From Blastocystis sp. subtype 4 (lineage: Eukaryota), in the NCBI RefSeq assembly GCF_000743755.1, contig NW_014569539.1, forward strand, positions 1-64,000: DNA of 64,000 nt. The letters run 5' to 3'. The position numbers and the translations under genes are program-made. Of the stretch, positions 7,228 through 48,954 are shown piece by piece. The notes under the pieces were generated by a model. It was given only the letters and a program-made list of their open reading frames with translations. It was not told where the DNA came from and did not search any database. Position 1 is the first letter of the stretch. Each line of letters begins with the position of its first letter.

Positions 7228-9515
7228 ATGCTGATTTTACCATTGCTTCTTCTGCTTTCGAGTGTTCATGCAGATCCGTTCTTCTCAACACTTCTCTATC
7301 AGGATATCCCAAACCAATTCTGTAGTAGATTCTATTATCGGAATGGAGGAGTGGGGTGTCGAACACCTATGGCTGGTATTCGCGGAATTGCCGTTCCCGT
7401 TCAGCAACTTGTTGTTTTGAATCCATTTACTTAATCGTATAGGGTGACTTGAAGGAGAATCTTGCCAAAGTTAATGAAGATGATGTTGTTCTTGTTGTAA
7501 ACTCAACAATTCTGACCCGTTGTGATTCCTATTGTTGGTTCATGCATAGGAGATCTGGTTAAAGAAGCTGTAAAAACAAAAGGAGTTGTTGGCATTGCCG
7601 TCTGTGGATATCTTCCATCTGTTGTGTTTTCTAGTTTTTTTGACCTGTAGGAAGAGGGATATTCACCATCATCTGTTTGTCCAGATGGATTGGGAACTCC
7701 TTCTGTGAATATCACATTGCATCCAGAGTACGAGTGGAATCCATCAGGCTCGGGACTATTCTATGATGATCTGCCAATTGCACTTTCTTATGTGACTGAT
7801 GAAGCTACAATTGAAGAAGTGGAGATAATGGATTTCCTTAATTGATAGCTATTCTCCAAGGCCTTGCAGAATGTGAATGGAGTTACTCATAACCCCTATA
7901 TTGTGGAGATGAATTCATATATGGGACCAGATACAATGGATTCAATAACATGCTTACGAAGAGGAAATTGTATGCCAATTGGTGGCCAATCGGTCTGGGC
8001 ATCCGAATCACCAATAGCCAGTGATCGGCCGATTGTTTTGATTGCCACGAAGATGGATAGTATGAGTGATGCTTATGAGACTGATGATGGACGGGTTGGA
8101 ATTACCGTCTCTATCCTCCTTGCAGCCATCAAATCCATTCGTGCTCTCTCTTTTGATCATATTAATCAGTTTGTCGTTGCATTCTTCCAAGGAGAATCAT
8201 GGGGACGTGGTGGAAGTCGATTGTGGGTAAGTGAGATTCAATCCTTCTCCTGTCTTCAAGCTATTGAACATGCTCAGTCTCCTTTTAATGATCGTATTTG
8301 TACAAGTCCTCTCAAGGTACTCTCAGTTGGTTTGATTGAGGTTCTAGTTATCACTTCATTTCACGAATTTGTCTCTAGATCGTTTCAAATATGTCATTGT
8401 ATTGGATCAACTCTTCCCTTATCAATCTTCTCTATATCTCCACAGTGAAGCTGCGGCTGCCCCTCTCAATCTTCCTTCCATTCTCCCTTCATCTGTACAG
8501 GGTCTGCCTCCTGGTCCTGCCCACACGTTCTTCCAAGCAGGCATTAATGATACATATGTGATAAGTGGATATGATGCTACCTTTGCTCCTGGATATATGA
8601 GTGCTCTCCCTCTACGAATCCAGCTTTCACAGGCTGTCGAGGTGGCAAATACTCTGGCCGCAGGTATTGTATCTTTGTTGGAACCCACAGAGCCTGTGGA
8701 GGTTCATGTCAATTCCACCTATCTCGATGACTTGCTATCCTGTTTTGCTGTGAATGGTCAGTGTGGTATAATGGAAGAGATGCTTGGATTGGATGTTGAT
8801 TCTATCACCAATCGTCAGGGTAGCCATGAATAAGTGGTTTCATTACTTAGCTGGAAAAGCACTGAATCTGTTTACAGGCACATATTCAGTCCTTTTATGT
8901 TCGTTCTTTCATCTGTAGGCTGGTCGTTATCCACTGTTCTCTCCTGAAGGATCATCATATTCTGTGAACTATACTGGTCCTGTAGATCCAAAGAAGGGTT
9001 TGTATCTCATCTTGTGTGTTCCATAGATGGAATCTACTTCACACCTTCAGTCATTGAGAGCTTTATCCACAGTACACTGACTCTCCACTTCCATCAGAAT
9101 GCGACTGGAGTATCTTGTTCCTCATGGACAGATTGTCGAAGTATCGAGAATGGTTATTGTGTGAAAGGTCATTGCTACGCATCTAATGCCTATTATCATG
9201 ATGCATTGGATCCAGCAATTCATGGTAACAGATTAAGGAGAGGTTTGATATAGTGATTGATCGTGATTCATTTACTGTTGATAAGGAGAGTTCAAGCCCT
9301 ATCTATGCTGAACCATTCTGGGGCGGATATTATGGAAAGGAACCCTATGTGAAGGTGTATCAAGTATGAAGAATAAGATAAAGATGATGAATAGCAAATA
9401 TCTACATGGGTGGAATGGATAACACTTCTTGTAGGGATTATTCTGTGTGCTATAACCTATTACTTGACCACTCTTCTGTATTCTGTATATGGTCAACAGC
9501 TCAAGTTAAATAAGT
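7228..9515 (+). CDS. NCSTN: Nicastrin (gamma-secretase subunit)
   Basis: Signal peptide; CSRFYYRNGGVGC, WNPSGSGL, CMPIGGQSVW, FFQGESWGRGGS, LPPGP and YAEPFW motifs; C-terminal TM helix; stop probably formed by poly(A) after T9515. Confidence 0.85.
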
Positions 9516-25506: not shown

Positions 25507-28500
25507 ATGATACCAGTATCATTCACTGTGGACCAGACTTCATTTTCTCTGGAGTTTGATGCTGTTATAACAGTGCAGCAATATAAGACATATTTCACTG
25601 TAATGACGAGAAACAATATTGATTGTTAGAAGGTTACTGGTGTTAGGTTCGAGGAGTTAATCTTCCTCTCTGGAAAGAAGCAGTTGAATGTATCGGTTCC
25701 CTTATTGACTCAGTTAACTACTGGATCTGAAATTAGGATTGGCCGTGCTTTGACACAGTCTGTAACATGGGATAATCATGTCTGTGATGTCCGTTGTTAT
25801 TCAGGATTCACTGTTAGTGAATTCATTTTGTACTGTATCCAATCTCTGAAATTGTCTGGAAGTGCTGATTGCTATTCTATTCAGCGTAAGGATGGAACTG
25901 AATTACCATCATTGACACCGATTCCCTTCAGTGGCTTTCAAGAAAAGATAATGCTAGTGAACAAAAATGCTCTTAAGAAACCACCTCCATATGTGCGCAA
26001 GCCTGCTAATCCAGTCTCAGGCATTGCGGGATGTCCTCCTGTTTTCACAATCGAAATCGGTATAAGTGGTATCTATAGCAACATGGTTGTAAAGAAAGAT
26101 GATTCTGTTGAAACAGTACTACGGCACTATCTTCAGGATACTCTGAAGGACAAGTATAGTGAAGACCTTGTTAAGAACGCTGTATTGCAATGTAATAACC
26201 ATGTATTGAATAAGGGGTTGAAGATGTATCAATGTGGGGTTGTTCGCAAGCGACTTGATTGTCCTTCTTATTGATATCATTGACATTTAGGTATCTTACC
26301 TGAAAAATCCAATACCTTCCTGGTGGATATTTCTTATATGAACAGTTTCAAATATTCCATTGAAGTAACTTCAGAGTTTTATGTTGGCAGTGTTCTTAAG
26401 CAATATGTTCAGGTATGTGGTTTCCGATCATTGAGATCTAGATGTTATACAGAACCCAGTACAATGATTCGTTTTTGGATAAACTTGCACTGTCATCATC
26501 GAATCAGATCCTCCTGAAGGATAGGACACTTGCAGATTATCACATTTTCTCTTCTTGTTCCCTTCTTTGTAGGTTCATATCTTTACTATGATAATCAGGT
26601 ATACTGTATTCCTGGTCAAATTCCAGTACATCTAGAATAACAATCATTGTTGTTCAAGGTCCAAATACCTACAAATATGAAGTGTCTGGTAATATGACGA
26701 TTAAAGCAGTTCTTGAGCTCCACTTGAAGGTCTGATTGTGTATATGACATGATGATTAGAATGCTTATGGTAGTCAGTTTCAGGATCACTTCACTTCTCT
26801 CTTTTCTTTACTAAGAGATGGAACTGTTCTTTCTCTAACGAATACATTGACTGAGAACGGGATTACTTCCTCTACAACACTTATCTGTGAAGAAACAAGG
26901 AAAATCCAAACTATAATCGTGAAGGTGTTTTCTGAAGGTGAAAAAACTGAAGAATACACTGTTCGATTGTCTGATACACCTATGGATGTAATTCAACAGT
27001 ATTGTGGTCAGCGTGATACTATGCTTTGCTTGAAAACTTCTTCTCAAATACTGAATAATGATAAGACTCTTGGTTCTCAAGGTGTTACTGCGGATTCTGT
27101 TCTTGAAGGTAGGAATAGAAAGGTTTGTTGATTTTAGTGGTGTTGAAACCTGATTCAGCTATTTCGATGACAATAAGAATCATCTTTACTTTATCTTCTT
27201 TGAATCAACAGATGTTTGAAGTACTCTATTCCCTTTCCTTACGGGATGCTATGATCCAATACTTGAAGGCTATTGGTTATCCCCACCCTTCACTTCAAAT
27301 GAAAACACTTGTAGTTGTTCTTCATGGATCCTCTTCTGCTCTTTCCAATCTGGATGTTTCTGTTGGCTCTCTGGCTAAGAACTTCCAACTTCATATTGAT
27401 TGTTGGTTGGATGAATGAATGTTGATGTTATAGTATGGACTAGGGAGGAATATGCAAAACTAATTCGTGTTCCTGTAGAACCAACTGTTAATCCGACCAT
27501 ACACCCGAATGGAAATAATGCACCGAAGAAGCCACCTGGTCTAACTATGAATTCATCACCTGGTATTACTCTAAACCCATCACCTGGTCTAACTATGAAT
27601 TCATCACCTGGTATTACTCTAAACTCATCACCTGGTCTAACTATGAATTCATCACCTGGTATTACTCTAAACTCATCACCTGGTATTACTCTAAACCCAT
27701 CACCTGATCCGAGTCCTAAACCATATCCAACACCAACATATATGCGTTCTCTCACCATCGTGTATTTGCATAAAGGTATGAAAGTGGATTATTCCATTAA
27801 TTCTTGGGTACAGACATCTCTAGAGTATTATATCAATGTTCCTATTCGTGTTTCTATTGATTCGTAGAAGTCACTCACTGACACCGAAAGGAAAGATGTT
27901 TTCATTCTCAATACTCAGGGACAATCTATCACTCTTTCTGATCTCGAACGATCATCTAATCAATCTACCAGTGTTTTTATTCTTCCTGTATTGAATTTGG
28001 TTTTGCTCTGATTTAGAAATCGTTATTCACTCTTTCTATGATGAAGGTTGAATCTATTTCTGCTTCTTCAGCTCTCTCTCCTTTATGTTTTGATACTCAT
28101 TCCATTTCACTTCCTCTCTTTACAGTGACATGGTCAATTACGAATTTCAGCAAGTCGCATTTTCGTAATATCATCAAAGCACCACTCTTAAGTAGAGTCC
28201 AAGTCATCAAAGTGTTGAGTCAGAATCCTTCGCTTCTTCTGATGAATAGGTGAAATCAAGAGAGCTCAAGGAGAAATGCAAATTGAGAATCGCACTATGA
28301 CATTGAGTTCTCTTTCTCTACCATACTCAGTCGTCAAATACCAGGGCATTAATGAGATTGTGGATATCGTGTGTAAAACAGGAATGAAGATTAAGGAGTT
28401 GAATATCGAGTTGGATGATAAAGCTACGAAAACAGACAAAGGACGTATTGAATCCAATTGTGGTCAGTTGATACGTCAGTATCAACTCAGTTTCCCTATC

Positions 28501-31500
28501 ATTTTGAATGGTCTAGTTATTGGTCAAATGGAAGGTCCAAAGATTCTTAAGGAAGAAGAGAAGAAAGACCGATTGGTCACAATTCAACAGAAGGATTTTG
28601 ATGGACAGGAATATGAGTTGGATTCCAATCCCCATCGTCACTATGACAATGAAGAATCCATTCTAGTTGGCTATTTCAATAAATCTAATGAGAAATCAAC
28701 ATTAGCCACTCAATCATTTGACTCTCTGATTATTCATTACTTTGCTCGAAGAGAGATTATGGAGAAAAGGAAGAAGAATCAGAATTTAGTACAGAGAACT
28801 ATGCAGTGGTTTACAGCTACTGATGAGTACGAATATGTCTCTGTTGAGAAAGAAGTCACTGAATCCTTTTATACTCTTGCTTCTGCACTGACAGATGGTT
28901 GTGAGTATCTTTATCTTGGTGATCGTCTTTGCTTTTCAGGTCAACCACATTTAGAGAAGATAATTAAAGACTTCTATCTTCCATTATTACCTCATGATAC
29001 TTTCAATCACAATCAAGTGACTGAAGAGATGCATTTCTTTGTAATCCATAATGTCAAGCATGCTACTTTGGCTATTCTCTCTGGGGACAATTTCTGTACT
29101 GTTCTCTGTGAATCGAAATCACTCATCTTTCATTCTCCTTCTTCGAGTGTTAGAGTTATTGTAGCTAAGTCTCCGTATTCAGAAGACTGGAAGTATTATG
29201 AACTGACTCCATATATGACTCGGAAGGCTACAACAGAACAACCTCCATTCATGCATAATACAGAGATGACTGTGAAGCGAAATGAGGTAGTGGAAGATTT
29301 GATTCGCTACAACATTCCTACTCTTATTGAAGGTGTTACATCGTCTGGAAAGACGTTCACTGTGGAGCAGTATTGTAGAAAAGCTCAATTGCCTTTAGTT
29401 CGTTACAATTTCAGTCCTTCGTCGACAGTAGAAGAGTTACTTGGAGATCTTGTGATAACAAATAATGAGAAGAATAGAATCATGTTTAAGGATGGTCCTT
29501 TCACGGATGCTTTCATTCATGGCAAGGTGATTCTTTTGGATGAAATGTCACTTGCACCTCCTCCAGTCATCCAGAGTTTGTTGTCATATCTCTTTGGTAA
29601 AAAGATCCAACATGAAACAACAAAAGGAAGTGAAGAGTGTTTGATGCATCCCTATTTCCGTGTGATAGCAACACAGAACCCTGCTGGAAGTGATTACAAA
29701 CGAAGTGTGATGTCAAGTAACATAAAGGATTGTTTCCGTTTAATTGGACATGCTGAGTCAAAGCGATATTTCCCAAAAATTGATTCAGCAGAGCGACAAG
29801 AGATTATCTGTGGCATGCTTCATGATGATTCTCTTGGGAAACGTGTTGCACAGATTCATGAGAAAGCAGAAGAACGAACTCGTGTTCATGTGAATCCATG
29901 TGATAAGGGAAAGGATTATACACTTCGTGATTGTTCTCGTGCCAAAGCCATTATGAGGGTTTGTCAGAATCTAGAAAGTGTTCCTGATGGACGACGATGC
30001 TTGGATCATGCATTAGAGATTGCATACAATGAAAACTTACGAATTGGACCTTTTCTAGAAGCTCCAGAGGTGACCTTTTCTGAAGATCATTTAGACTTAA
30101 CCTGTTGGTCAAATGTGTATGATCGAGTTCGTCTCGGATTGGATGCTGGTTGCCATATTCTCCTTATTGGAGAGACTGAGTATGCTGCAAGAAAGTATTG
30201 TCGCGCTCTTCTACAGATTCTGGCGGAAGATGGAACGGTATCTGAAATCGTTCATTGTAGCAGTTCATCATCTACAGATAGTGTCATTGGAGGTTATGCA
30301 TTGGAGAAGGATGATAATGATAATCCTGTTCCTCGCTTTGTAGCTTCTCCTTTCCTGAACCGAATAGAGGAGGGTGGAATCTGTGTTCTTCAATCGATGG
30401 AGACAATGAAATCGAATGTAATTGAACGACTGAATTCGGTATTGGAGTTATTGCCCGCAGATGGTCGAACCCACATTATTCGTTTTGATGAACGTAGGGA
30501 AAGCCCTAATGTGATTCTCCATTCATCTTTCCGTGTGATAGCGACTACCTCAGAGAAAGGTCTTCAATCCTTCTCTCCAGCATTACGAAATCGTTTTCTT
30601 GAGATTATGATAGGTTGTGAGTCATCGGTGAACATGAATGATGACTATCAAGGTCAATTCCAATATGATTATGGATTGAGTGAAGAGAGAGAGGCATATG
30701 AGTGTATGGTCCGTTATTCTCATGATTCTAGTTTCTTCTTCAAGCAACACGTTTTAGCAAGTCTTATGTTCATTCGTTATATGACTACAATTCCTCTCAA
30801 TTCTGCAATTGTTGATTCTATTTGTAAGAAATCTCCACTATCTCAATTGAAATCTCTTGGATCTCTGTGTTCTCCAATTTCTAATCTCTTTTATTCTATT
30901 TGTAAGAATAAGGCAACTGCTCTGTATGGACGGAAAATGTGTGGGAAAACATATCTAACTAGACAGATGATCTCTCTCATGTCAATTCGTGAGCATCAGA
31001 TCATTCAAGTGTCCACAGAAACGGACTTTGTAACCTTAATGGGAAGTACAGATATCAAAGGGAATTTCAATCCTGGTGTTTTGATGGATGCGGTAGAAAA
31101 GGGATATCTTGTGATATTTGATAATGCAGAGAACATGTCAATTGAACTGTTGGAACAAATGGATACGATTCTGGATCCATTTACTCATGATTTTACGTAT
31201 CCTATTGCTGAGCGTCATCAGATTCATCCTGCTTTTCGTGCTCTTTTCATATTCACAACACGACGAGATACACTCACAGTTCCTCTTCCTGCCTTTTATG
31301 AAACTGTCAAGTTGCCTGCAATTACTGGAGCAATTGCAAAGTCTTTTATTCAGAATTCGTTTTGCAAAGTATTGTGTGACCATATGGATTCGGGTGAGAT
31401 CTCATTAGGTGAGATCATGATGGTTGAGAGAATCAATACAATGGATTCATCAAAGAATACTATGCTTGTGACTGCTGCGTTATTCGCTGATAGACCTAAG

Positions 31501-34500
31501 AAGAAGGAGGTTTTGCAAACAATTCTTGATAAACACAAAAGTGAACTTAGTGAGAAGGATATGAAGGAAACAGAAGTGATTCTCGAATCCAAAGAGGCGG
31601 TAACATCTGAATCTACGACACATTCTGGAGCCACTCGATTCTCCCGAGGTACTCTTATTGTGGAGAGTTCGCTTCCTTACAATTCTGTTAAGGATACAGA
31701 TTCTGCAGTCAAAACTGCCCTCTTCACCGCCCTTCTAACCAAGTATTCTCTGTTGCGTACTCCACTTCTTCTTGTAGGAGATCCAGATGTGACTAGTGAG
31801 GTTTGTAAGTATCTTGAACCCGATGCATTGCACATGGAAATGTCGAGTTCTATGGAGATGAGTCATGTATTTGGTGAAGTATCTGTATGTCATGAAGAAG
31901 ATATTGAATACATTCTGCGTTCAGTACGTACTTCCAACTTGGATGGAACTCCACTTCAGTTCTATGTTAGTTATCTGGAGGATCAATTAAAGGAGATCAA
32001 AAGTCAAGCAGAGATGTTACATAATAATGGACAATCAGATTCCCATGGAATTACTTCATCAAAGAGAAGTGAAGAGAAACCATCAGTAATTTTGTATCGA
32101 CCTGGTCCACTTCTTCGTGCTATTATGGGAGATCGATCAGTAATTCTTAATAATATCAATCTTCTTAGTGAACATTTGCGACCTCGTCTTTATGCTCTTC
32201 TATTCAATCTTGGAAATGGAGAGTTCACATTGTTTGAGAACAATACTTATCATGATCGACATATTGTTGGAAACAAGCTCAACATTCTGACTACATGTGA
32301 ACCTCTGGATATCAATAGAGTGGAGAATAAGGACGCATATTTTCAAGTGTTCTGTCAATCGTTCTCTTCTAGTGAGATTAGCAAATATGACTTTAAGAAC
32401 AATGATCAATATCCTCTTCATGTACTACGTAAGGCTGATAAGATGAGAGATGCATTCAAGAATCCTCATCTGTATACTCCTCTTTATATCACATACTTCC
32501 AATCAGAAGCCAATAAACGTCAAGAAATGATTGAAATACTTGAGAATGATGAATCCATGAAGTCATTCATTCAATTCTTGCAGATCACAGAAAAGGATGC
32601 TGAAATGAATGATACAAGTCTGATGAATACCTTCTTTCATTCAATACTTCTCAAGAAAGTGATATCAGCTCTTCGTGCAGAGACAGATGATTTTGATAAG
32701 AAGAAGCGAATGCGTTCTCTCCTTCCAACCAAGACTACTCTTCAATTACTCACATCAGTAGCTATTGCGGACTTTAGTCACATCCCGCTGATTCTTGAAG
32801 GTGATCCTGGAGTGGGAAAGACGGTAGCAACAGAAAACTTCTTCCTTTGTCATGATTTTGTGTATAAGCGAATCAGTTTCTCCAACAGTACTACGATTGA
32901 CAGCATTTTTGGTTGTTATTCGTTAGTGAATGGTAATCTTCAGTTTAAGAATGGTAGTATCACAGATCTTCTGGTATCAGGCCCTCAAACAGGAAAACGA
33001 ATAGCACTACTTCTTGATGAAGTGAATTTGGCTCCTTGTGATGTGCTTGAGGTGTTACTATCTTTGGTTCGAGCGTATTGTAATCATGAACGTTTCCAAG
33101 TGCCAGGAAGTGAAGAGATATCAATTCCAGAAGATATGCTTCTTATTTGTTGTATGAACCCAGCTGCAATGTCTGCTAATCGAAGTACTCTTCCTCGTCA
33201 GTTCTATTCTTTCTGTTTACATCATCGTGATATCAAGTATTCAATCCAGGAACTCTTCCTTACTGCTACTTCGATTCTTGCATCTGTTCCAGGAAACTCA
33301 CCAGAAATGACAGACACAATTATGAGTCTTTTCAAGCAATCTTTCTTGTCTTCTCAGAAGACATCCATTCCATTCTCACTTCGTGATGTATTGAAAGTAC
33401 AACAGATTTGTAGTGCTAATAAGACCATTTCTCTTCAAGCTGCTTTGTGGCTTGTATTTGCTTGTCGTCATGAAGAGTCAGAAAGAAGGATTGTTGAGAA
33501 GATTCTTGGTCAGGAAGAACAGAAGAATGTGACGATTGTGAAACGTGAAGATCATTGTGTGGTGACAAGTTTCTGGGAAGTTGTGATTCCTACAACATAC
33601 AATGATTGTTTCCATGAATGGTGTTTCACCACCTCTGAGTTGTTTACAGTATTCAAACTCTCTTTGGCTCTTTTGAGTAAACGAGCTATTCTAGTGTATG
33701 GTTTGTCTCCCTCTGGAAAGAGTTATACGATTTCTTCTATTGCTGATATGTGGGGTATGAGATGTCGAACTGTATATCTGAATCATGAGAGTACTCCTGA
33801 TTCTTTTATTGGTCGTTCTTCTCTAGCAGTAGATGAGAATGGAATAGACCACATTGTATTCCGAAAAGGTCCATTGTTGGAAGCTATGGAAGAAGGTCAA
33901 TGGATTGTGATTGAAGACATTCATTTGGCAAACAATGATGTGATGGAATCTCTTAACTCTCTTTGTGAAGAGAATCCGATAATGAAAGTGGTAGCAGGTG
34001 ATCAAGAATGGACATATGTATCTCATAAGTCATCAAAATCTGGTGGAAATGAAAAGCAGATTCATTCTGACTTCCGAATCTTCTTTACCATTTCAGAGAA
34101 CACCTTGAAACACTTTACTGGACCATTCCTGAGTCGATGTGTGATTATCTACAGTGATCCCATAGCCAGTTCAAAGTCAATCCAAGAGATTTGTTATATT
34201 GTGGGTAAGACTGGCAAACCAGAATGGTTTGGAGAGAAAGAGGAACACCAATTCCGTCGTTGCATGCGTGTGATCAATAGTGGAGATGAGAAATCCTTTG
34301 CTATCGAGTTTGGATATGAGCCACGTCTCAACGAGCGATTGGTAACATTTGAGATCCCTCATTCGATTGAATCGGACCTGGAGGATCTGATTGAATCAAT
34401 AGCAAAGATATCTGATGAGGAACGATTTAATCAGACTCGAAAGGTGTTGATGCGTATTTGCGACTCTACACCCATGTCATTCAATCGTAACGATGTTTGT

Positions 34501-37500
34501 CAGCATCTCTCACAGTCGAAGCAGTATTTAGAATCTTCATTCATCTATTACATTGTGGATGTACTTACTAGGTTCCTTGACTCTACAGAGACATTTGAGA
34601 ATAGTGTGATTCGAAATCAAAGTGGTGATTTGGCTTCAATTCTTCATCGATGGTTCATCTTGAGTGATATTCATCCTCCTCTGTATCCAAGAAAGAAAGC
34701 TTCAGATTTCTGTTTTAGCAAAGGTACTCAATTGACATACTTCTTCAACATTTCCCAAGAAGACAATAATCAGTTGTATCTTCTATACTATATCTGTGGT
34801 CGAACTGCAGAACTAATTGATACTCTTGAGTATGATGAATTGAAGTCTCTATTCGAATCAATATTTGTGTATATGGACAGTATGATGAATGAACAGATGA
34901 TGATTACTTGTACTTGTGCTGTTGACAAGATTCGTACTGAGTTTTTGTTGGCCAAGAATAAGGAACGTGATTTCACGAGGACACCAACATTGGACAATGT
35001 GTTAGCAACACGTACTATTCGTGAGGCAATTGAGAATGAAATGAAGAAACTCCCTGAATCAGTTCAACACTGTGATGGAATGAAACTTATATCAGGATTT
35101 GTAACAGAACTAGACTCTAAAGTAGCTAAAGATTATTTGGATAAGAAGAGTGATTCTCTTGAAGATGATCAGACTCAACAGTATCGATTCCGTGATGTGC
35201 TTCATCACTGTGGACCCAACAAGACCCTTCAGGATAACATCAAGAAGGCTTTCGATGGTCGAATTGATAGTACTACATTTAATCAGTTGGGAATTAATGG
35301 AGATGTGGAGAAAGAGTACCATGAATATGAATATAAAGCTCCTTATCAAAAAATGATTGCAAAGACTTCTCATTGTCTGTATAAGTTGAACAAATTCCAT
35401 TGTCAAGCAGTGATTCTGAATGAATATGCTGATGTTTTAAAGGAATTGAAGATTGATATTGTGGATGCATTACGTCATTTTGGAAACTATGAGAGTGACG
35501 TGAAAGATTCTTTGATCATTCTTCTGAATGCCTTGTTATGTGTGTATAGGAAGAATATTAATTGGAAGGAATTCGTTAATAACTATCACATGTATCCTTT
35601 CCTAATGCCCCGTCCTCAGACAGAACAAGCAATCCAAGAAGCCATTGATATGTTGAATGAGAATGACTGGTTTGAATCACAAGTGGGACAGGTGAAGGAT
35701 AAGTATAAATACAAGAAGAAGAAGGATGCCTATGAATCTATTAGAAATGATCTGATACGAAGATTGAGCGTAACAGACATGGAACCTATTCACTTAGAAT
35801 CTATTGCTATTCTTCAGACTCTAGATTCTGATAACAAGAATGAGATTGTTAAATTGTCATATTCAAAGATTGCGAAAGTTCAGTCACTATGGAAGTGTGA
35901 TATGTCAGCAGATGTGGAAGAGGGAATGGAGATTCCTGCTCGTGTATTAGGATACGAAGTGGAATTACAATCATCACTGTCAAAGAAGGAAGATGAGTTG
36001 TTCCACTTGGTTTGGTCATCTTCTTGTAAGTTGAGTTTTGAGGAAAAGCTTCGAGTTGTATGTCCAAGAGAGCGATCATCATTGGAAGAAGTGGTGATTG
36101 ATATGTATAACAATGAGATACTTTGCTATTCCCTGAAGAAAGCATTAAGAGTTGCATCATCGATTGATGAACTGATTGAGAAGGTCCAAGAGGAACTACG
36201 TGAACAGACGAAGAACAAGATCGTTGTAAAGGATAAAGAGATCCAGAGAGTGTCCGAAGGGTTACGTATAGCACGCAATGAGTTGAGAGAGGCTGAAACC
36301 TCGCTTTCGTTGAAGAAGACTGATATCATTGATAAGTATACAAGAATTGCTGATGACTATAACAGACAACACTTTGGGAAGACTTCTGATGATTTAATTC
36401 GTAATGATACAGCGATTCGTGTGTATGCATATCTGTTAGCATTCAATCAACTGAATCAGGGTATGTTTCAACCATACTGGTCAACTCCCACGAAGAATCA
36501 ATTTTCCTTTAGTCCACGAATACCATCTCTACGAAGTGATTATTCTCCTTTTGCTTTCCAAATTGTTCTAGTTCCCAAGGATGCCAAGTTTTTGTCAAAG
36601 AAGAATGGTACTCTAAAACTGACGTTAAGTCCTCCAGAAGGATTAGAATTCTTACTGAATAGAATTGATTATGTGATAACTAAGGATGGATTTCTTCCAG
36701 AATCCCTAACACAGCACCATCTGATGGTGGTACTTCCTCTGGCTCCATGGAAATGGTATGTTGAGACAAAGGATAAAGTGGAGTTTGAACTTCGATATTA
36801 TCAGAATACTATGTCTATACTATCATCAGCAAAGAAATCAAGTAGAAGCTATAGTTATGGTTACTATAATTCGATTTACTATGATGGTAACATATATCTC
36901 AGTCTTGTTCTCTTCTTAACAATGTTGAAACTACGAGACTATAATGGTTTTGCTTACAACGTACAAGGTCGTCCTGAAGACTTCTATGTATATGGGCTTT
37001 CTCATCGTCATACTGGTTCTTGGTCAAGTTCTATAGTGTCATTAAGTCAGAATGAATGTCCTTCATTCTATTCAATGCATAGCCATATTAATTTGTTATG
37101 TTCTGAGATCACATCAGCAAGTCAGATTGTGGATCTATATGTTCTTGATTATTCTGTAAAAGGAAATGCAAGACGGTGTGATCAGTATGTGAGTATTCCT
37201 CGTGACAATAATGCTAGAATGGCATATTATGATTCCAGTTCTTCTAATGATGTGTATGCGTATAATCAGCTACTAGATAAGAAGATCAAGAAGAATCAGG
37301 TAGTAGGAGAGTTGGAAACACAACTGAAAACCAAGGAGGATGAAAGGAGGAATCTAGTTCAGAGTAGTTCCAGTGCTTCTCAATACTTCTTCCCAGATAT
37401 CACAAGCAGTTCAAAAGAATTTGTTGCTCAGACTACGGAATTGAATGATGTTATTCTGATGATTATGGATGAAAATGAAGTCTCACTTTGTCTTCCTAAG

Positions 37501-40500
37501 AAGGATACATTCTATTTGCCAACACGTTATATTGGTGTGGATGGTAAGCAAATAAGCATACCTATAATCAAAACACATGATTCATTGCAGTTAGTTGTAA
37601 CAAGCAAAGATCCTTCTGTGGATGTTATTGCTGATACTACACGAGTATCATTAATATTGAATACAACAGAGGAGGGAAAGAAGATTGTTGAGTTGAAGGC
37701 TGAAGTGATGATTGATACTAATAAGGAACCTGTATTGGTGAAATCGATATTCGTTGTATTCACAGTGAAACGTCTTGAGTATGTTCGTACCTCAGAACCT
37801 TGTTTTAACTATTACTATTATCTGTATCCTCCACATGATAGTCTAGATGTCTGGTTCAGTGATAGTCCAAACCCAGTTCATGTTTCCTCTAGGTATGGAT
37901 ATAGTCAGTCAATTGGAAAGACTCGTAGTGTATATGTTAACTTTGGAACAAGATATGGTGAAAAGCCTCATTCTCTATTTACATTCAATAAGAATACTCT
38001 TGTTCCATTCGAGCGTGGCAAGTCTTCATCTAATCCTATCAGCATATCAAAGAGTGTTTCTGCGAATACTGATGCATTAATAGAACAATTGAAGTCAGAA
38101 ACCATGTCAGTATTCTTGAATGCTCTCAACAATTTATGTCTTGGAATTCTATCAGCAGACAAGAAACAAAGAGCAGAGATTCAGTTGATTCTCAATGCCT
38201 GTGAGTCAAGTCATTATTTGTTGCCTTGTATCCGAAATCGAACTTATACCATGTTATGTCTGATAACACAAGGTAGTTCATCTCTTCAATGGAATACAGA
38301 AACAGTGATAACTCATAGAGTTATTGAGGAGAATGTGGTGATCGATAAGGAAGTAAGTGGAACAAAGACAACAGTTATGTTGGATACTGAAGCAAGTGAT
38401 AGTTCGAAAGGAGGATATCGAATCTCAGATGATGTGAAGAGTAAGGTGTCAGCTGCTGTGAATGCAGTGATCATTGATACTGGTGTATCTCAGGAAGAAG
38501 AGAAAAAGAGGGATAAGAAGAAAAAGAAGAAGAAAGATGACAAAAAGGTCGATGAAAACGAAGAACGATATCGTGGTGAAAATTACAAGAACTTCTTAAA
38601 AATGATGGAGAAGAAGAAGATGGATGAATTGTATGAGATGATCAATAATCGTCGATTGAAAGAACGATTCGTTACTCCAACTGCAACAGCATCAACTCTT
38701 ACAAAGGAGTCATTTAAGAAGAAGACAAGGGATATTGAAGAGAAGTTACTCCTTCCAATTCTAACAACTAGTTCTCAACTGGTTGCATTGATGTCAGAGA
38801 GTTCTGCCTTATCAAGGGAGCCATCATCAACTGTAAATGTGATTATTGATACAAATTGTACTCACAGAACAAAGAAGAGTCGAATACGTTCTATTATCAC
38901 ATCAATCCTGGTGACAGTAATGAAAGAGATTGGTATTCATTGTCGTCTCTTTGTATCATGTGGTCGTTACAAGGGAGTACTCATTCCTATTGAGGATCAG
39001 TCTCTAACTGATGTGGTTTCTTTCATCTTTGATACAGAATTGATAGTAAAGCTTCCTTCAACACCTCTAGACCTATTGATGGTGACAGGACAGTTCAATG
39101 AGAAAGATCCTATTGTGATTGTGGGAGATGGAATGAGTGAACAGTTGATATCCTCTTGTGCATCAGTGAAGGCAGTCTTTGATAGTCATAAGGACCAAAT
39201 GTATCTATTCTGTGTGATAGGGAATGAAGAAGAAGCTTTGTTGAAGAGCAATCAACAGTCACTTGAGAATCAGCTCAAAGCAAACTTTGGAGAGGGATAC
39301 ATTGCAATTAATAAGGTCAGTGATCTCTTACATAACTGGGAAATCCTTAAGGGAATCATGTTCACCAAGGAACCAATGAACATAGTGAACTGTTCTGAAC
39401 CAATGAATGTAGCTACAATTGTTGATTCGATCGATGAGGATCTAGAAGCAACATTCTCCTCCAACAAATCAGTAACATTCCAGTGTATCATTACAAGTGA
39501 ACAGAATGCAAAGTTTGTGGAGATTCTGGATGCAGATTTGACGGTAACTCCATCAATGTCGACTTCTTTGACACTTAACGATCTGAATGTATTGATCTCA
39601 GCCGATAATCTATTTGATGCTTTGAGTTCGAATCTCTTTGTACCCAACAAGTCAACTGGATATGTTGCAAGCACTTCAGGAACCTCAATTCACATTGCTA
39701 ACTATATCAAGTATATTGTAAGCAAGGCAGGTGATGGAAAACTATTCAAGAAGCTCGGATCCGATAAGGTTCGTTCGTATTGTGCCTCAATTGTCATTGA
39801 CTGTTCATCACTTGCCTTCAGCTACATCAATCGAGTACATTCCCTTTTAACAGTTCTATCATTGCTCCGAAATATTAGCAATCTCCAATTACCATGTGTC
39901 GATATATGGGTTGCCGGTTCCACAGTAACTCGTATCTGTACAGGGTCTCCATCAGGTGATTTGTGGGAGTCCAATGTGATCCTGAGTCTGCTTTCTACAC
40001 TTCATTCACCTTGTCATAATACAACCCTTCCTGATTGTATTCGCTATGCCTGTTGTACGAGTAATTGTCGTTCATTTTCTTCTCTGATGATTGTTCTCAC
40101 AAATGGTGTGGTGTCTGAAGCAGCTCGTAATGAGATTCGAGCCATTGTCCATGGTGTAGAAATGACATACATTGGAATAGGTCTTGGTCAGTATTTGAAT
40201 GGATTCAAAGATTTGTTCCCCACAATGTTATGGTCTGCAAATCCTGCTCTATTGAATCAAGCAATCATGAATATCAGTAATCCTTCAGACAAAGCAGAAG
40301 TCTGTTATGCAGTTCCTGAGCATGAGATCACTCCTGAGATAAAGGAAATGAAACATGCTACTTGTTTTGATGATATGGTGAAGAACATCTCGGCAATTGC
40401 TAGTACTTATGAGATTGCATTGAGTAAGAACCGTATTCTTGATAAAACTGAATCTGGAAGTATGGAGGTTGGTCAGTACAACAGTAGTGTCAATGATCTT

Positions 40501-42156
40501 GGTGAAGATGGTGGTTTTGGTGAATACACGATTCTGTTTGTGATTCTGTATCTGCGTCGAAGTGATGAAAAGGATGAAAATGGGAAGATACAAGATGAGT
40601 TCATTACTGAAGATGTGTTACGTTATGGAAAGGACCCTATAAAACCATTTTCCCCAGTTATCAAGTTGGGTCATGGTAAGGATCATAGTGGTAATCCTAT
40701 TGGAAAGGGATTCAACATTTTGTATGCTTTTGATTATGAGACTGCAATGGAGATTCTTCGAAGAGGAAACATTCGTGTGATATTTATCACTTGTTCTCCT
40801 GGAGATGGAGAGTTCCCTTCACAAGGAAAGAGTGGAAAACAGGACTTCTGTGATTCTTTCTTGGATTGTGTCTACACATTCAGTGAGAATGGAGGAGGTG
40901 TGTTCTGGTTCCTTGAGAATATGCCTTATACGTATGAGGCAGATCGTTATTTTCAACGCTTTTATGGCTTTGAAGCTGTAGGTGATAAGGAGAAATCGAT
41001 TCAAGGAGGAAATATGATGATACGGACAAAGAAGACTGTTCCAAAAGCAGGCCATTTCATTACAATAGGAGGTGATGTGACGGACTTTGATCAGTTATCG
41101 AAGCTTGATTTTGGTATTAAGGAGATCTCAGAAGGAACAACACTATGTAAGTTGAATGAGAAGAGATTGGAAGAGAATGGATTCGAAGTATTTGCTATGG
41201 AGAGTGAAGGAAATGCTTCGATTATGGTTCGGAACAATGACTCAGTTGATACCAGAGGTCGAATGATCATTGATACAGCTGCTTCCAAGTTATTCCTGGA
41301 GTTCACCTCAGAGGGAACAGCTCGATGGATAAGTAATGCTGCAGTTTGGTTGTGTAATGTGGAACAGTTCTCAGATGCGAAGGCAAGAGATGAAAATGCA
41401 AAGTCTGGAATCGATATGAGTAATTTTGGAACTGATAAGATGAAGAAGCGGCCATTTGAGAAACGTGAATTTGTGACAAAGGTTATTGATTTCTGTGTCA
41501 CAATTATTATGGACACTACAGGATCTATGCATAGTTACATTGAAGCAACCAAGAACAACATCATGAACGTATTAGAAACACTTCAAGAAGAAGAAAGGCG
41601 ATTAGTTAAGAGTGGGAAGATCAAGGGAAGTCACATTGTTGGTCAAGTGGTTGAGTACAAAGACTTTGGCGATACAATCAACAGTTCAGAGTTTATTACT
41701 GAAGATTTCAACCAACTTAGGAGGAAGTTATTTGCATTTACAGCAACTGGAGGGTGCGGATGTAATAGTTACTGTGAAGATATGCAAAGTGGATTTGAAA
41801 GAGCAATTAAGGAGATGAAGAAGTATAGAGATTACAATCATATGATTCTTGTGTGTGGAGATTGTCCCAATCACTCAGATGGAGGATGCAGTCGCAAAGA
41901 AAATCCACGTCATCACAAGAGTTTCAGTTTTGTATGGGAAATGATCTATCAAGATCTTCGTATGTTCCCTTCCTTAAAGGTAATGTTTATGCCAGTAGAT
42001 GGAGATGATATGCTTAAGACTGCTCGTGTTATTGAGAAGGGACTTGGACATGATATTGCTCAGTCACAAGCAGTCTCAAATAATAGTAAAGAGTTTGCAA
42101 ACTATCTAATAGAAACGATTCGGGATGGGTTCAGAGGACTTCCAGGTATTTCATAA
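25507..42156 (+). CDS. Giant (~5449 aa) multi-UBL / six-AAA+ (midasin-like) / vWA x3 / GATase-1-like protein
   Basis: Frame-consistent introns 25600-25629, 26261-26290, 26413-26441, 26569-26598, 26730-26759, 27109-27137, 27402-27433, 27838-27867, 27988-28016 and 28219-28249 join the UBL exons to the 4626-aa ORF. Walker A motifs GVTSSGKT, GRKMCGKT, GDPGVGKT, GLSPSGKS; terminal MIDAS DTTGS. Confidence 0.85.
27535..27702 (+). repeat. Coding minisatellite, 7 x 24 nt (PGLTMNSS / PGITLN[P/S]S)
   Basis: Units cctggtctaactatgaattcatca and cctggtattactctaaac(c/t)catca in the order A-B-A-B-A-B-B. Confidence 0.95.
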
Positions 42157-42379: not shown

Positions 42380-43310
42380 ATGTCAGTGTCCAAGCTTGCA
42401 ACTAAGCTTGATATAACAAAAGTCATTACAAAGTCATCCAATTCTTTCAAGTATTTAATAGAAGAGGAGTAAACAATAGATCTCATCTTGATGATTCGCT
42501 TACAAAGCATTATGCATCAGTTACATCCATATTATCTGTTGTTTCAGAAGGAAGAGGGTAGTTGTAGAGTCTGTTGATTTGTAGGTTTTTCCAGTTGGAG
42601 GCAGAAAATAGTACTCGATTCGTATGCTAAGCAAATCATGTTTACACAGAAGAAGCAAGTAGGACTCGAAACAATCAATCATTGACAGCCAAATCGTGTG
42701 TTTTCGAAAGATGACTTAGATTTTATGCGACGAGCGGCTGAAAGTGCACCATCTGAAGGTAAATGTGATGGATTCATGTGATTGTAGAGCTTCGAAAGAG
42801 TGGGCTATTTGGAAGTGAAGTACATGATATTCTAACTAAGTTGATATCAGGTCAAACCGTCAAAGAAACGCCCAACACAAAAGCATTGATTTCTGGTTAT
42901 CGGTTGTGGAAAAAGCAACACTCTATCGATATTTACTTTACAGATGTATTCGTTCAACATCCAAAGTACGAATGGGGGACGGTTGACAAGTAGATATCAG
43001 TATTCTGGATTTGTCGATGCAATAGGAATGAATCATGAAGGCGATCTAATCATTATCGATTTTAAATCAGGTAAATCTGTCTATGAGTACTATGCACTCC
43101 AATTGGCAGCATATTGCAAAGCAGTTGAAGTGACATGTAACTGTAAGGAATCTATTCAGCACGCGTATGTATTACGATTTAATCGTGATAATGCCAATTT
43201 TGACTTCCTGAAGGTGATTGACATTGATAAGTGTTTTACATATTTTCTAAACTGCATTGAGCTAACAAAGATGAGAAAAGAAAAGAATGGCTTCTTTGAA
43301 GAGATTCTAT
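42380..43310 (+). CDS. PD-(D/E)XK exonuclease (RecB-like / MGME1-like)
   Basis: YASVTSILS, GSEVHDIL, YSGFVDAI, IIIDFKSG, YALQLAAY; ATG 42380 joined by intron 42433-42461; genomic TAG at 43324 but a poly(A)-made stop is predicted at 43310. Confidence 0.85.
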
Positions 43311-43314
43311 TGTC

Positions 43315-43322
43315 TGTTTGTT
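43315..43322 (+). terminator. TGTTTGTT 3'-end/polyadenylation element (example)
   Basis: The same motif follows gene ends at 3174, 3512, 11845, 13845, 16056, 17116, 19601, 23121, 48957, 49024, 51576 and 55434. Confidence 0.85.
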
Positions 43323-43330
43323 AGAATTGT

Positions 43331-45269: not shown

Positions 45270-48200
45270 ATGAGTATTGAGATGGTCGATTCATCAACGA
45301 AGCCAGAGAATGGAGGGGCTTCTGAAAAGTAAGTGTGTTACTTCTTTTCGAACATAGTATGATTGAGCACTCTACCCAGGAAGTGGGAACAACGGGTAGT
45401 CTCCCACGACTTTATTCTGTGTATTGGTATTTCTAGACTCTAAACTGTAGTTCTGGTCGCTATGAAGATAGTTTTGTGGGTAATTTGTAATTGTATATTC
45501 ATGGTCTTTATTGTAGCGATACGTATGGAAGTTATTCGGCTAATGGAATGTATGGAAATCATGCTTCTCTGAACTATTTATTTGGTAACTTAGGATCGAC
45601 GACAAAGAATACGAAGGTAACTAAATGGATTGTTTCTAATGATCAGACACGACGAGCAGAGATTCGTTACGATGGAAAGGGAACCATTCTGAATTATACT
45701 TCGTTAGTTGCCGTTGTTAACTGGATGATGAATTAATGTTTAGGAAATGTTCCTGTTGAAAGACAAGGAAGGATTTATGGGTGATAATATTCTGAATCTT
45801 GTGGGTAGGATCAAATTTGAAGATATGACAATTAGATCCTTCCTTTGTGAAAGAGAAGGGAGAGAAAGCAGTTCAAGAAGCCTTTGGACTCTTTCAGGAA
45901 GGTGCATCAGGCTCTCCTGAAATCCAGAAGGAACAAGGAGCTTCGAAACTTGTAGGAGTGAAGACTAATGGAGCATCGTTTGAGTTATCAGTAACCTTGG
46001 TGAAAGTGAGTAGCAATGTAATAACTGCGCGTCTATCCGATGGATCAGAAGTCACAGTACAGGCACCTCACATGTTATCATCTTCGTCATTCAGTAGCTA
46101 TGCGGATACACTGAGTCACTCTCATACTTACAGTGTGGGATCTGTGGGACAGAGTTCATTCTATGGTCGTGACTACACATCATCTATTAACCAGTTTGGT
46201 GGTCTAGTTGTTGACATGGCTGAGATTGGTACTGATAACGAGGAATGGGTTGGAACAGGTCGGTATTGTGAGGGACAAGAGGAAGTCTTTGAAGAAGGAG
46301 ACACTCGTTTTGGTGGGATAAGTGCTGTGTCACTAACAGCTTTCTCAGATCTACGTCGTGGACTGGAAAATGGTGTGATATTATTGGATACAGAAGCAGA
46401 ATCACTTACGGATGTGGTGAATGCAATGTTAGACGATGTGGAAATGAGACAGATCGCAACTCCAGAAGTCCGAGATCCCTTAGTTCAACTCTTCTCAAAG
46501 AAGGATGAATCTCTTCCCCTTATCCAAGAAGGTGAACAGAGAGAGGGTTGTAAGGTGTATGTTGCGAAACTCTCCTTTTTAACAAAGCCAATCATTGCTA
46601 TGGTTCGTTTGAAGAGTCCTATTGTGGTTCAAGAACAGTCACCTCTTCTCATTCGGTATTTCTTATTTGTATTGGGTTCGAAGACTTGTACTTCAACAGC
46701 TCAGTACTTCTATTGGAATGGGATCATTTGTAGGCTTCATGAAATGGGTCGTGCCTTCTCGTTAATGATGTCTCAGAACTGGTTTAGTAGTGCTGCTCGT
46801 AAGATCAACACAGATCGTCTCTTCTTAAAGTTGATGGATAATTTTATGACTCGATGTACCATGCTTCCACCACCTGATCCTTACGCTGCTAATCCATTCC
46901 AACGTCGGAATGTTATGGGTCAGACACATGGCTGCTGTGGAAAGAAGGATCAACAAACGATCACAGTATTCATGCCAAACACGACATTCCAGAGAACCAA
47001 TCACCAGTTGCGCAGACGTCAGAGAGTCTTGAATGAGCATGACAATGTGTTGAAGACAGAAGCATTACAGAAAGAGCCAACAGTGGAAGAACTGGAGAAG
47101 GAGAAGCCATCTCTTTACATCAGTCATTTGACAGTACGAGACTGGATCGTGGGAGGTATCACCATTGCTTGTTGTATTGCAGTGTTAGTACTATTGTTGG
47201 CCCATCATTTCGTACCATATGATGATGGCAAGCACGTAGTTCCCATGCTTGGTTACTCAATGTCTATTTTTGGAGGACTCAAAGCTATCACTAGTGCTGA
47301 ACCTGCATACTATGCGTAATTCCCGTGATTTAGGATTATCTTTAGTTTACCAGATTCCCCGCGGGGATTGTATGAAGTACGTACAGCCATTCAAGCTAGT
47401 CCGGAGCCCTATACCTTGAAATTACAGTTATTTGAACGAATTGGTGAAGAGGAGATTCCTCATGGCACACTAACAGACATTATCTCTGCTGCTGAGACTG
47501 AGACGGAGTCTCTTCAGGAAATCGATGTGGCTTCGGAGTTGAAACCAGCAGGAGAGAGTGCCTTGTTTATGAAAGTAACTACAAATAGTACCGCTCCAGT
47601 GAGTTTCGTGTTGTATGCTGATCCAATGAATCCTATTGGTCGATATCGTATTCTGCTGGGTAGTATCATTCTTGTTGGAGTATATGTGCTTCTCCTTCTT
47701 GAGGTGATAAATCGTGCAGTGGTTGCATTCATCGGAGCATTCTTAACTCTCCTTCTCATCAGTTTTGTTCATGATGCTCCTTCTCTATCAACTGTTATCA
47801 GTTGGATGGATGAAAGTACGTTGTGTCTTCTCTTTGGTATGATGATCATGATTCAAATGTTATCAACCACGGGAATGTTCGAGTTTTTGGCAGTCCAGAT
47901 GTTAACCCTCACCAAAGGTCATATTTTGGCCCTCAACATCTCTCTATGTCTGTTAACAGCCTTGTGTTCAGCATTCTTAGACAATGTGACCACAATGCTG
48001 CTAATAGCTCCTGTTACAATAGAGTTGTCTCGAATGATGGAGGTAAATCCAATTCCATTCTTACTACCTGAAGTAATCTATTCAAACATTGGAGGAACTG
48101 CTACTCAGATTGGGGATCCCCCAAATTTGATTATTGGTAACATGCTGAAAGAACATATTGGATTTGTTGACTTCATAAAGCATGCCACTCCGTGTGTCCT

Positions 48201-48954
48201 GATCTGTCTTATCGTTGTATATCCCTTCGTGCTGTTTTACTATCGAAAAGATTTATTGAAACCAAGAGTTCAGGTTGATGAGTCACTGAAGGAGAAATAC
48301 CAGATAAAAAATAAACCACTTCTCTTGAAATGTGGAAGTGTCCTAATCACCGTCATCATCCTGTTTTTCTTACACTCATTCCATCATATCGATACTGCGT
48401 ACATTGCTATTGCAGGCGCATTTGCTTGTCTGTTCTTAGGAACAAATGAAGACTTGCATACAACATTTGAATTGTTGGAGTGGGAAACCTTAGTCTTCTT
48501 TGCTGGTCTTTTTATCATGATTGAAGGAGTGAATGAGTTAGGTGTTATTCGAGCTATTGGAAATGGAGTTTCAACACTAATTATGAGTTCACCTCCTAAG
48601 TATCAATCCTTATTGGCTCATATGTTGATTCTATGGGTATCAGGTTTGGCATCGTCGATTTTAGATAACATTGCATTCACAGCTACCATGATACCAGTTA
48701 TTCGCATTCTAGGTGAACACCCTGAATTGAGTCAAAGAATGGACATCTATACGTTAGCTTGGGCACTTGCTTTTGGTGCTTGTTTTGGTGGTAATGGAAC
48801 CTTAGTAGGTGCAGGAGCGAATCTGGTAACGGCTGGTATTTGTGCAACAAATGGTCATCCAGTCAGTTTTGGTCAATTCTTCAAATTCGGTTTTACCTGT
48901 ATGATGATCACCATGATAGTCTCTACAATCTATGTATGGATCCGATATGTTTGA
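45270..48954 (+). CDS. Band-3/SLC4-type cytoplasmic domain fused to an OCA2 (P-protein)/ArsB-NhaD permease
   Basis: SLC4-N motifs DLRRGLENGVILLD, KPIIAMVRL, RYFLFVLG, HEMGRAFSLMMS; 30-nt intron 47316-47345 joins in frame to the permease with SAFLDNVTT, NIGGTATQIGDPPN, LDNIAF, GGNGTLVGAGAN. Confidence 0.85.

Follow-up and report, generated by a model that had tools for sequence, protein, structure and literature searches.

The locus considered here raises the question of which gene a row of divergent ubiquitin-like (UBL) domains belongs to and what such a row could do in it. An earlier note on this DNA, made from its letters, had described an array of about 7-8 units at 25507..28000, hidden by micro-introns. 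In what follows the window is the whole stretch of DNA that was analysed (64,000 nt of Blastocystis sp. subtype 4, contig NW_014569539.1), and coordinates given without a locus name refer to it; all the features of the predicted gene are on the + strand.

The window has a GC content of 35-46% in 1-kb steps, is intron-rich and carries ordinary eukaryotic genes throughout, with a Pfam family (e.g. Not3, EMP70, Tudor-SN-type nuclease, Vps8) in 15/20 of its ORFs. Directly downstream from the giant gene described below, the exon at 42890-43324 had a PD-(D/E)XK nuclease match (25 bits, above the cut-off); at 45829-48954 an exon for a Band-3 cytoplasmic domain precedes one for a CitMHS/ArsB-type transporter, the two probably forming one fused anion transporter gene. 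No upstream synteny of the window with the related loci L005 or L008 was found by tblastx, and the neighbours differ. In these two loci, a kinase-like gene (judged by eye) is divergently oriented upstream, on the minus strand (L005:4800-5520 and L008:4800-5730).

The spliced gene model and its joint

A frame starting with the ATG at 25507 reaches a stop at 42156, and is stop-free once ten GT-AG introns of 29-32 nt are removed. The whole predicted gene (25507..42156) has therefore 11 exons and 10 micro-introns and encodes 5,449 aa, a layout repeated in L005 and L008. Precisely, introns 1-5 are at 25600-25629, 26261-26290, 26413-26441, 26569-26598 and 26730-26759, and introns 6-10 at 27109-27137, 27402-27433, 27838-27867, 27988-28016 and 28219-28249; any single one of them, if left in, gave a premature stop. 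Exactly 10 introns of 28-33 nt were required for an open path through the 2,745-nt stretch. When any GT-AG intron of 28-33 nt was allowed, an open path was found in 0/300 dinucleotide shuffles, the furthest of which reached 609 of 2,745 nt. These results bear out the claim that micro-introns hide the units. The modal length of Blastocystis introns is given as 30 nt in passages of PMC5608401.

A TGA located 7-13 nt before the intron 3′ end was present in 10/10 window introns, in 78/384 decoys and in 17/31 introns of relatives, the 7-13 nt interval having been picked after these introns had been seen. With a splice matrix trained only on the introns of relatives, 4/10 window introns ranked above 97% of the decoys and one was below the decoy median. 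A gene finder recovered all 10 introns, but it had been trained on those introns and was not counted as support. We infer from the DNA that the ten micro-introns would be removed. Low-depth contigs of two sequencing runs, which may come from the source sample, showed neither joints nor differences from the window. At one and the same site and phase, intron 1 is GC-AG in L005:6216-6245 and L010:6130-6160, but GT-AG in L008 and in the window. The exon at 28250-42156 is 13.9 kb long and intron-free, and the front end has an intron every ~270 nt, in a genome that is intron-rich.

The array had been considered as an entity ending near 28000. This had to be abandoned, as the frame does not end there but continues through intron 10 into a 4,636-codon ORF at 28246-42156. 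The ~420-aa region that includes intron 10 and hence the joint to the giant exon (28017..29310) had no Pfam match, and the related protein P0020 crosses the joint in one ORF. Of the 12 members of the closest protein cluster, which have 69-77% identity in the aligned part, 7 have their start at model aa 755 and read through joint 10 in a single ORF. Among 12 related loci, all three with 10 kb of upstream sequence matched the UBL region ~3 kb before AAA1. Open spliced frames with the same domain order were obtained for L005 and L008, in models hand-adjusted by adding in-frame 30-nt introns and one GC-AG intron, and 6/10 window introns were at the same column and phase, including introns 8, 9 and 10 (from the linker to the giant exon). 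The exact Blastocystis 3′-end motif was absent within the window gene and in 7/7 loci scanned.

Given the P0020-cluster ORFs across the joint, the L005 and L008 frames and the missing exact 3′-end motif, we considered the array as joined to the giant ORF. On sequence grounds, it is highly probable that the two are one fused gene, and the array is, very likely, no independent gene but the N-terminus of a giant six-AAA/vWA protein. From the N-terminus, the model predicts seven UBL units and an eighth one separated from them by a Pro/Ser linker, then six midasin-type AAA+ modules and a long stalk, followed by up to three vWA-like domains. No spliced model of 318-2,000 aa containing the array was found among 7,987 candidates, which is weak evidence; among shorter proteins bearing an AAA domain, 19 matches came up, none with a name. 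For L003, L011 and L012 the gene finder returned unreliable paths with negative scores, and for L001 no path.

The region after unit 8 (28017-29310 in the window, L005:8662-9353 and L008:8649-9338) may be a repeat domain. It has five phase-1 introns, 24-56 codons apart, in L005 and L008, one intron in the window and none in P0020, a case of lineage-specific intron loss or gain.

The ubiquitin-like units

The five motifs quoted in support of UBL domains were all found in the sequence (5/5), the last one spanning intron 6. We compared three-lineage profiles of the units with a generic UBL profile by HHalign, obtaining for units 1-8 probabilities of 96.4, 5.3, 23.0, 96.8, 96.1, 38.3, 7.5 and 0.8%, respectively, the best of 58 control blocks reaching 11.2%. 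We also built an HMM from units 3-7 of the relatives only: each of the window units 3-7 scored above all 200 shuffles, and units 1, 2 and 8 did not. Against Pfam, the window exons alone were below the cut-off (best 17.3 vs 25.4 bits), and the matching exons of L008 and L005 passed the PF00240 cut-off with 37.8 and 32.4 bits. A profile of 26 unit or half-unit rows gave 22/22 PDB matches to ubiquitin or ISG15/17. Single exons searched against the PDB with phmmer gave nothing relevant, and a unit-2 profile gave 0 PDB matches.

Unit 1 (aa 1-69; 25507..25743) is split by intron 1, whose site is common to L005 and L008, and is among the units with a high HHalign value. Unit 2 (aa 72-142; 25750..25962) lies in one exon and was undetected by sequence profiles alone; its AlphaFold2 (AF2) model is a beta-grasp, with a Z of 9.8 to RA/FERM-type UBLs. 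For unit 3 (aa 168-244; 26038..26298) the AF2 model was also a beta-grasp (Z 11.8, rmsd 1.5 over 70 aa), and the relatives-only HMM scored 32.8 bits against a shuffle maximum of 5.4. Unit 4 (aa 249-327; 26311..26606), split by introns 3 and 4, scored 52.6 bits with the same HMM, and unit 5 (aa 336-413; 26631..26894), split by intron 5, is the one carried by the exons of the relatives that passed the Pfam ubiquitin cut-off. Unit 6 (aa 417-488; 26904..27148) reached 85.1% in HHalign with the window sequence alone, and its Pfam ubiquitin match (E 0.004) was below the cut-off. Unit 7 (aa 494-575; 27164..27441) is a probable UBL: its score of 12.4 bits with the relatives-only HMM was reached by 0/200 shuffles, and its HHalign value is inside the control range. 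After a Ser-Pro-Gly-Thr-rich linker made of a 24/48-nt tandem repeat (27533..27706), one 48-nt unit shorter in L001, comes an eighth unit of ~72 aa (27742..27987), kept in the relatives and with introns 8 and 9 common to L005 and L008, for which the UBL fold is unproven.

The AF2 prediction for exon 2, run with 23 rows, had a pLDDT of 86.7, and Foldseek with this model placed tandem-UBL structures at the top (E 3e-8). Fold predictions with a beta-grasp outcome cover units 2 and 3 only; a single-sequence fold of the exon at 26760-27107 had a pLDDT of 46. The Atlas neighbours of exon 2 were ubiquitin-family clusters with a score <=0.87, a lead only.

From the Pfam, HMM, HHalign and AF2 results, units 1-6 are directly supported as UBL domains and unit 7 through its sister units, and unit 8 lacks UBL support. 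The proposed number of about 7-8 units thus becomes seven, with support of unequal strength, and a doubtful eighth. Two of the checks that had been proposed gave answers in favour of a UBL array, the search with ubiquitin-clan profiles for units 1, 4, 5 and 6 and the fold prediction for units 2 and 3.

The units had been described as highly diverged from each other, and this was correct: their identity is 4-25%, with a mean of 14%, and they are spaced by linkers. Likewise, residues 1-800 of the window model contain no Gly-Gly and no unit ends in di-Gly, in agreement with the view that the array is not polyubiquitin. Introns recur at two sites of the unit, one following the helix (phase 0) and the other where the last strand ends (phase 1). 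These recurring sites point to tandem duplication of one intron-bearing module, and suggest that units 3-7 derive from it. In unit 2 an Asp or Glu precedes the last strand in 5/5 aligned rows, and in 3/3 lineages the corresponding loop of unit 6 carries an Asp; no conserved acidic residue was found in the same loop of units 3-5 and 7. This loop may correspond to the position of Rsa4 E114 and Ytm1 E80.

The motor and its relatives

Downstream from the joint, six AAA+ modules of the midasin/MoxR type (AAA_5, aa 1169-2781; 29311..34149) were identified by Pfam (PF07728, 194.8 bits), by motifs and by a PDB match, the best being midasin (E 2e-33). Walker A and B are kept in modules 1, 5 and 6, also in 4/4 relatives; module 3 is without the Walker B Glu, and modules 2 and 4 are degenerate. 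A long variable stalk or linker follows (34504..38676), with no Pfam family. Two vWA-like segments with degenerate metal motifs (38824..40296) were recognised by motif only; these motifs are kept in 4/4 relatives, and HHalign to the midasin MIDAS gave 1.9% and 0.7%. The lead-in of the second segment aligned with the midasin MIDAS over 44 ungapped columns, but with a probability of only 0.7%. A conserved domain of ~330 aa (40414..41406) had no Pfam match, and its Atlas neighbours (GIFT/ThuA/DUF4960, 0.92-0.93) are a lead only, for a possibly glutamine-amidotransferase-like domain. The predicted C-terminal vWA domain (41488..42153) has a DxTxS metal-site motif, kept in the Blastocystis and Tritrichomonas relatives, and its Pfam VWA_4 match (E 4e-4) was below the cut-off. 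A quick tree was built from 84 module rows. In it, modules 1, 2, 4 and 6 each grouped with their positional counterparts in Tritrichomonas-type giants (SH-aLRT 94, 97, 81 and 85, respectively). Modules 3 and 5, in this tree with long branches, were not paired by position, and none of the six was inside a midasin module clade.

Blastocystis hominis CBK22809.2, the closest relative with a name, has 42% identity over 93% of the giant exon; its model begins at ~aa 1126, just before AAA1, and is annotated without the UBL front end. In L003, 93% identical to the B. hominis protein, the upstream exons had a weak UBL signal only. The Tritrichomonas relative P0006 has a different N-terminus, kinase-like by eye.

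The comparison of unit numbers gave 7+1 units in three lineages and a haplotype of the L004 type without units 6 and 7. In the L004-type exon (P0070 and P0229, 9 cluster members), unit 5 is followed by a short linker and then by unit 8. L004 and L012 are 90-99% identical to L005 from about L005 position 9500 onward and 49-61% at 8400-8900, and the L004 and L005 motors have 94% identity over 8.5 kb; the two types may be alleles or else paralogues. Units 4-7 were present in further divergent forms, with ~25-60% identity to L005 or L008, in P0066, P0067, P0069, P0078 and P0101; these imply more haplotypes, paralogues or subtypes than the loci compared. A nonsense change in unit 7 (window position 27240) was seen in L001, a low-depth contig from a near-identical strain; it may be a sequencing error or a null allele, and all exonic differences of L001 in 27023-29789 are protein-changing.

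Between L008 and L010, two alleles of a relative, pN/pS was 0.15 over units 1-7 (595 codons), 0.07 in the ring and 0.23 in the stalk. The value of 0.15 indicates that the spliced array is under purifying selection. The units had been proposed as non-cleavable binding or decoy modules: that they are non-conjugatable stood, and the decoy part was not supported, there being no sign of positive selection between these loci, though whole N-terminal blocks differ between haplotypes.

Possible roles and known systems

We consider it moderately probable that the array is the N-terminal, non-cleavable docking module of a single-chain midasin/MoxR-type AAA+ remodelling ATPase; for the docking role of the UBL row, argued by analogy, the chances seem evenly balanced. 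The row would recruit partners or clients to the motor, each of the differing units presenting a separate binding surface, as passages of PMC6502913 describe for USP7. The six AAA modules would form a ring, in which modules 1, 5 and 6 would turn over ATP, thereby shifting the stalk and driving the last vWA domain; with its metal site, this domain would hold the client and detach it from its complex. All these steps are modelled on passages about midasin (PMC6624252) and MoxR-vWA pairs (PMC7159879). By the same analogies, the array likely serves as an exchangeable docking platform.

Other readings of the same gene were weighed against this one. The fused gene, as modelled, could be a defence-type sensor or decoy, in which the UBL row baits ubiquitin-directed enzymes of viruses or bacteria and their engagement triggers the motor. 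N-terminal blocks exchanged on a near-identical motor (L004/L012 vs L005), the absence of units 6 and 7 from the L004 type, the different N-terminus of P0006 and the MoxR-vWA pairs of conflict systems in passages of PMC7159879 would all suit it. We hold it unlikely nonetheless, as pN/pS over units 1-7 carries no positive-selection signal, 7+1 units are retained in three distant lineages, the units are distantly ubiquitin-like only, no effector domain was identified, housekeeping genes adjoin, and L004 and L005 may be paralogues, not alleles. If instead the UBL units were ligands of the vWA metal site of their own or of a second copy, as Rsa4 and Ytm1 are for midasin, the array would be a built-in handle for auto-inhibition or self-assembly. 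The kept metal motif of the last vWA domain, the acidic residue of units 2 and 6 and the binding of UBLs by the midasin MIDAS through an acidic residue (in passages of PMC6624252) agree with this; units 3-5 and 7 lack such a residue and seven handles for one metal site are hard to account for, which makes it decidedly improbable in our judgement.

A reading with two genes would make the fused model a chimera, in which a stand-alone UBL-array gene ends at a stop made by polyadenylation and an AAA gene follows. According to passages of PMC5608401, Blastocystis stop codons can arise by polyadenylation upstream of the TGTTTGTT motif, and the same source cautions that such stops lead to chimeric gene models with false introns, which are thus documented in this organism. 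One-mismatch 3′-end motifs do occur at 27122, 27397 and 27401, and the sole named model starts just before AAA1. The exact motif is missing from the gene, however, a cut 5 nt before both motifs after unit 7 gives no in-frame stop (read from the sequence), joints 8-10 are kept in three lineages, joint 10 is intron-free in P0020, and an intergenic spacer would not fit; two genes have accordingly a slim chance. We give a slighter chance still to the reading that this is simply the divergent midasin of Blastocystis, stripping UBL-bearing factors from pre-60S ribosomes. Its six AAA_5 modules, long linker, C-terminal vWA, similar size and best PDB match speak for it, as does the 44-column alignment at its low probability. 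On the other side, the midasin lid families PF17867 and PF21108, listed for 10/10 midasin-type matches, were absent here at E up to 1, and the D/E-rich tail before the MIDAS was absent as well (maximum 22 acidic residues/100 aa vs 41-51 in four midasins). Moreover, the modules are outside the midasin clades of the quick tree, and identity to midasins is 22-33% over 3-11% of the query.

The docking module therefore remains our preferred reading. More tentatively, and rather doubtfully, gut protists could have a family of midasin-like single-chain AAA+/vWA motors, so far undescribed, whose N-terminal recognition modules are exchangeable; in Blastocystis, strains would swap the number and sequence of the UBL units, and the array, bounded by introns, would act as a variable head for sensing or targeting, perhaps in a cell-defence machine. 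In the literature searched, no description of a UBL-array/AAA fusion or of the family was found, nor a function described for CBK22809.2, OHT04875.1 or KAK8886455.1; genome-paper supplements may list it. A 'midasin-like protein' is among the SNP-rich Blastocystis genes in passages of PMC9896827 and may or may not be this gene.

Single-chain motors with six AAA modules are few in eukaryotes: midasin, dynein and RNF213. The gene points to a further family of them, common to two unrelated gut protists, in which public annotation truncates the protein. A vWA metal site and UBL domains, which midasin brings together in trans, would here be parts of one chain. The front end varies between strains on a near-identical motor, and through it subtype differences of a very common gut eukaryote could be put to the test.

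By itself the array is ordinary, as divergent multi-UBL arrays are common, and the fusion and its variability are the finding. The UBL unit profile matched 351 cluster representatives, and arrays of 4-14 matched stretches were frequent among the 150 listed. Among these 150, 36 long multi-UBL proteins were scanned, 5 with a kinase, 1 with a DNase II and 0 with an AAA domain; the last is a weak blank, since intron-rich giants are poorly called in these collections. In P0124, P0131, P0140, P0141, P0205 and P0149, proteins of eukaryotic type, long divergent UBL arrays are joined to a protein kinase in five cases and to DNase II in one; the Paramecium protein P0068 has 14 matched UBL stretches. Polyubiquitin, ISG15, the OASL di-UBL and multi-UBL proteins have the same fold as the units. 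Unlike polyubiquitin, the array has no di-Gly, its units are ~14% alike and separated by linkers, and near-identical head-to-tail repeats are absent. The C-terminal five-UBL array of USP7 likewise consists of tandem, diverged, di-Gly-less beta-grasp domains on an enzyme, and in passages of PMC6502913 these bind separate partners and regulate it. In this case there are 7(+1) units, N-terminal and on an AAA+ motor, not a protease, a likeness that does not imply homology.

MoxR-clade ATPases generally pair with vWA domains according to passages of PMC7159879. As in those systems, a MoxR-clade AAA+ is coupled here to a putative MIDAS-type vWA, whereas they are mostly prokaryotic and multi-gene and here one eukaryotic chain holds six fused modules and a UBL array. 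The Tritrichomonas giants OHT04875.1 and KAK8886455.1 share with this protein six AAA modules and a C-terminal vWA-X-vWA, and have other or short N-termini, unlike the UBL array. Like midasin (Rea1/MDN1), this protein combines in one chain of ~5,000 aa six MoxR-clade AAA+ modules, a long linker and, as predicted, a C-terminal vWA. Midasin binds UBLs of other proteins, whereas here the array is carried by the protein itself, which also has up to three vWA-like segments, an extra domain and AAA modules that group apart. According to passages of PMC6624252, the midasin MIDAS grips the UBLs of Rsa4 and Ytm1, which are then removed with ATP. Since the lid families and the acidic tail are missing and the modules are outside the midasin clades in the quick tree, we do not file the giant protein as midasin, but by analogy it likely works like midasin.
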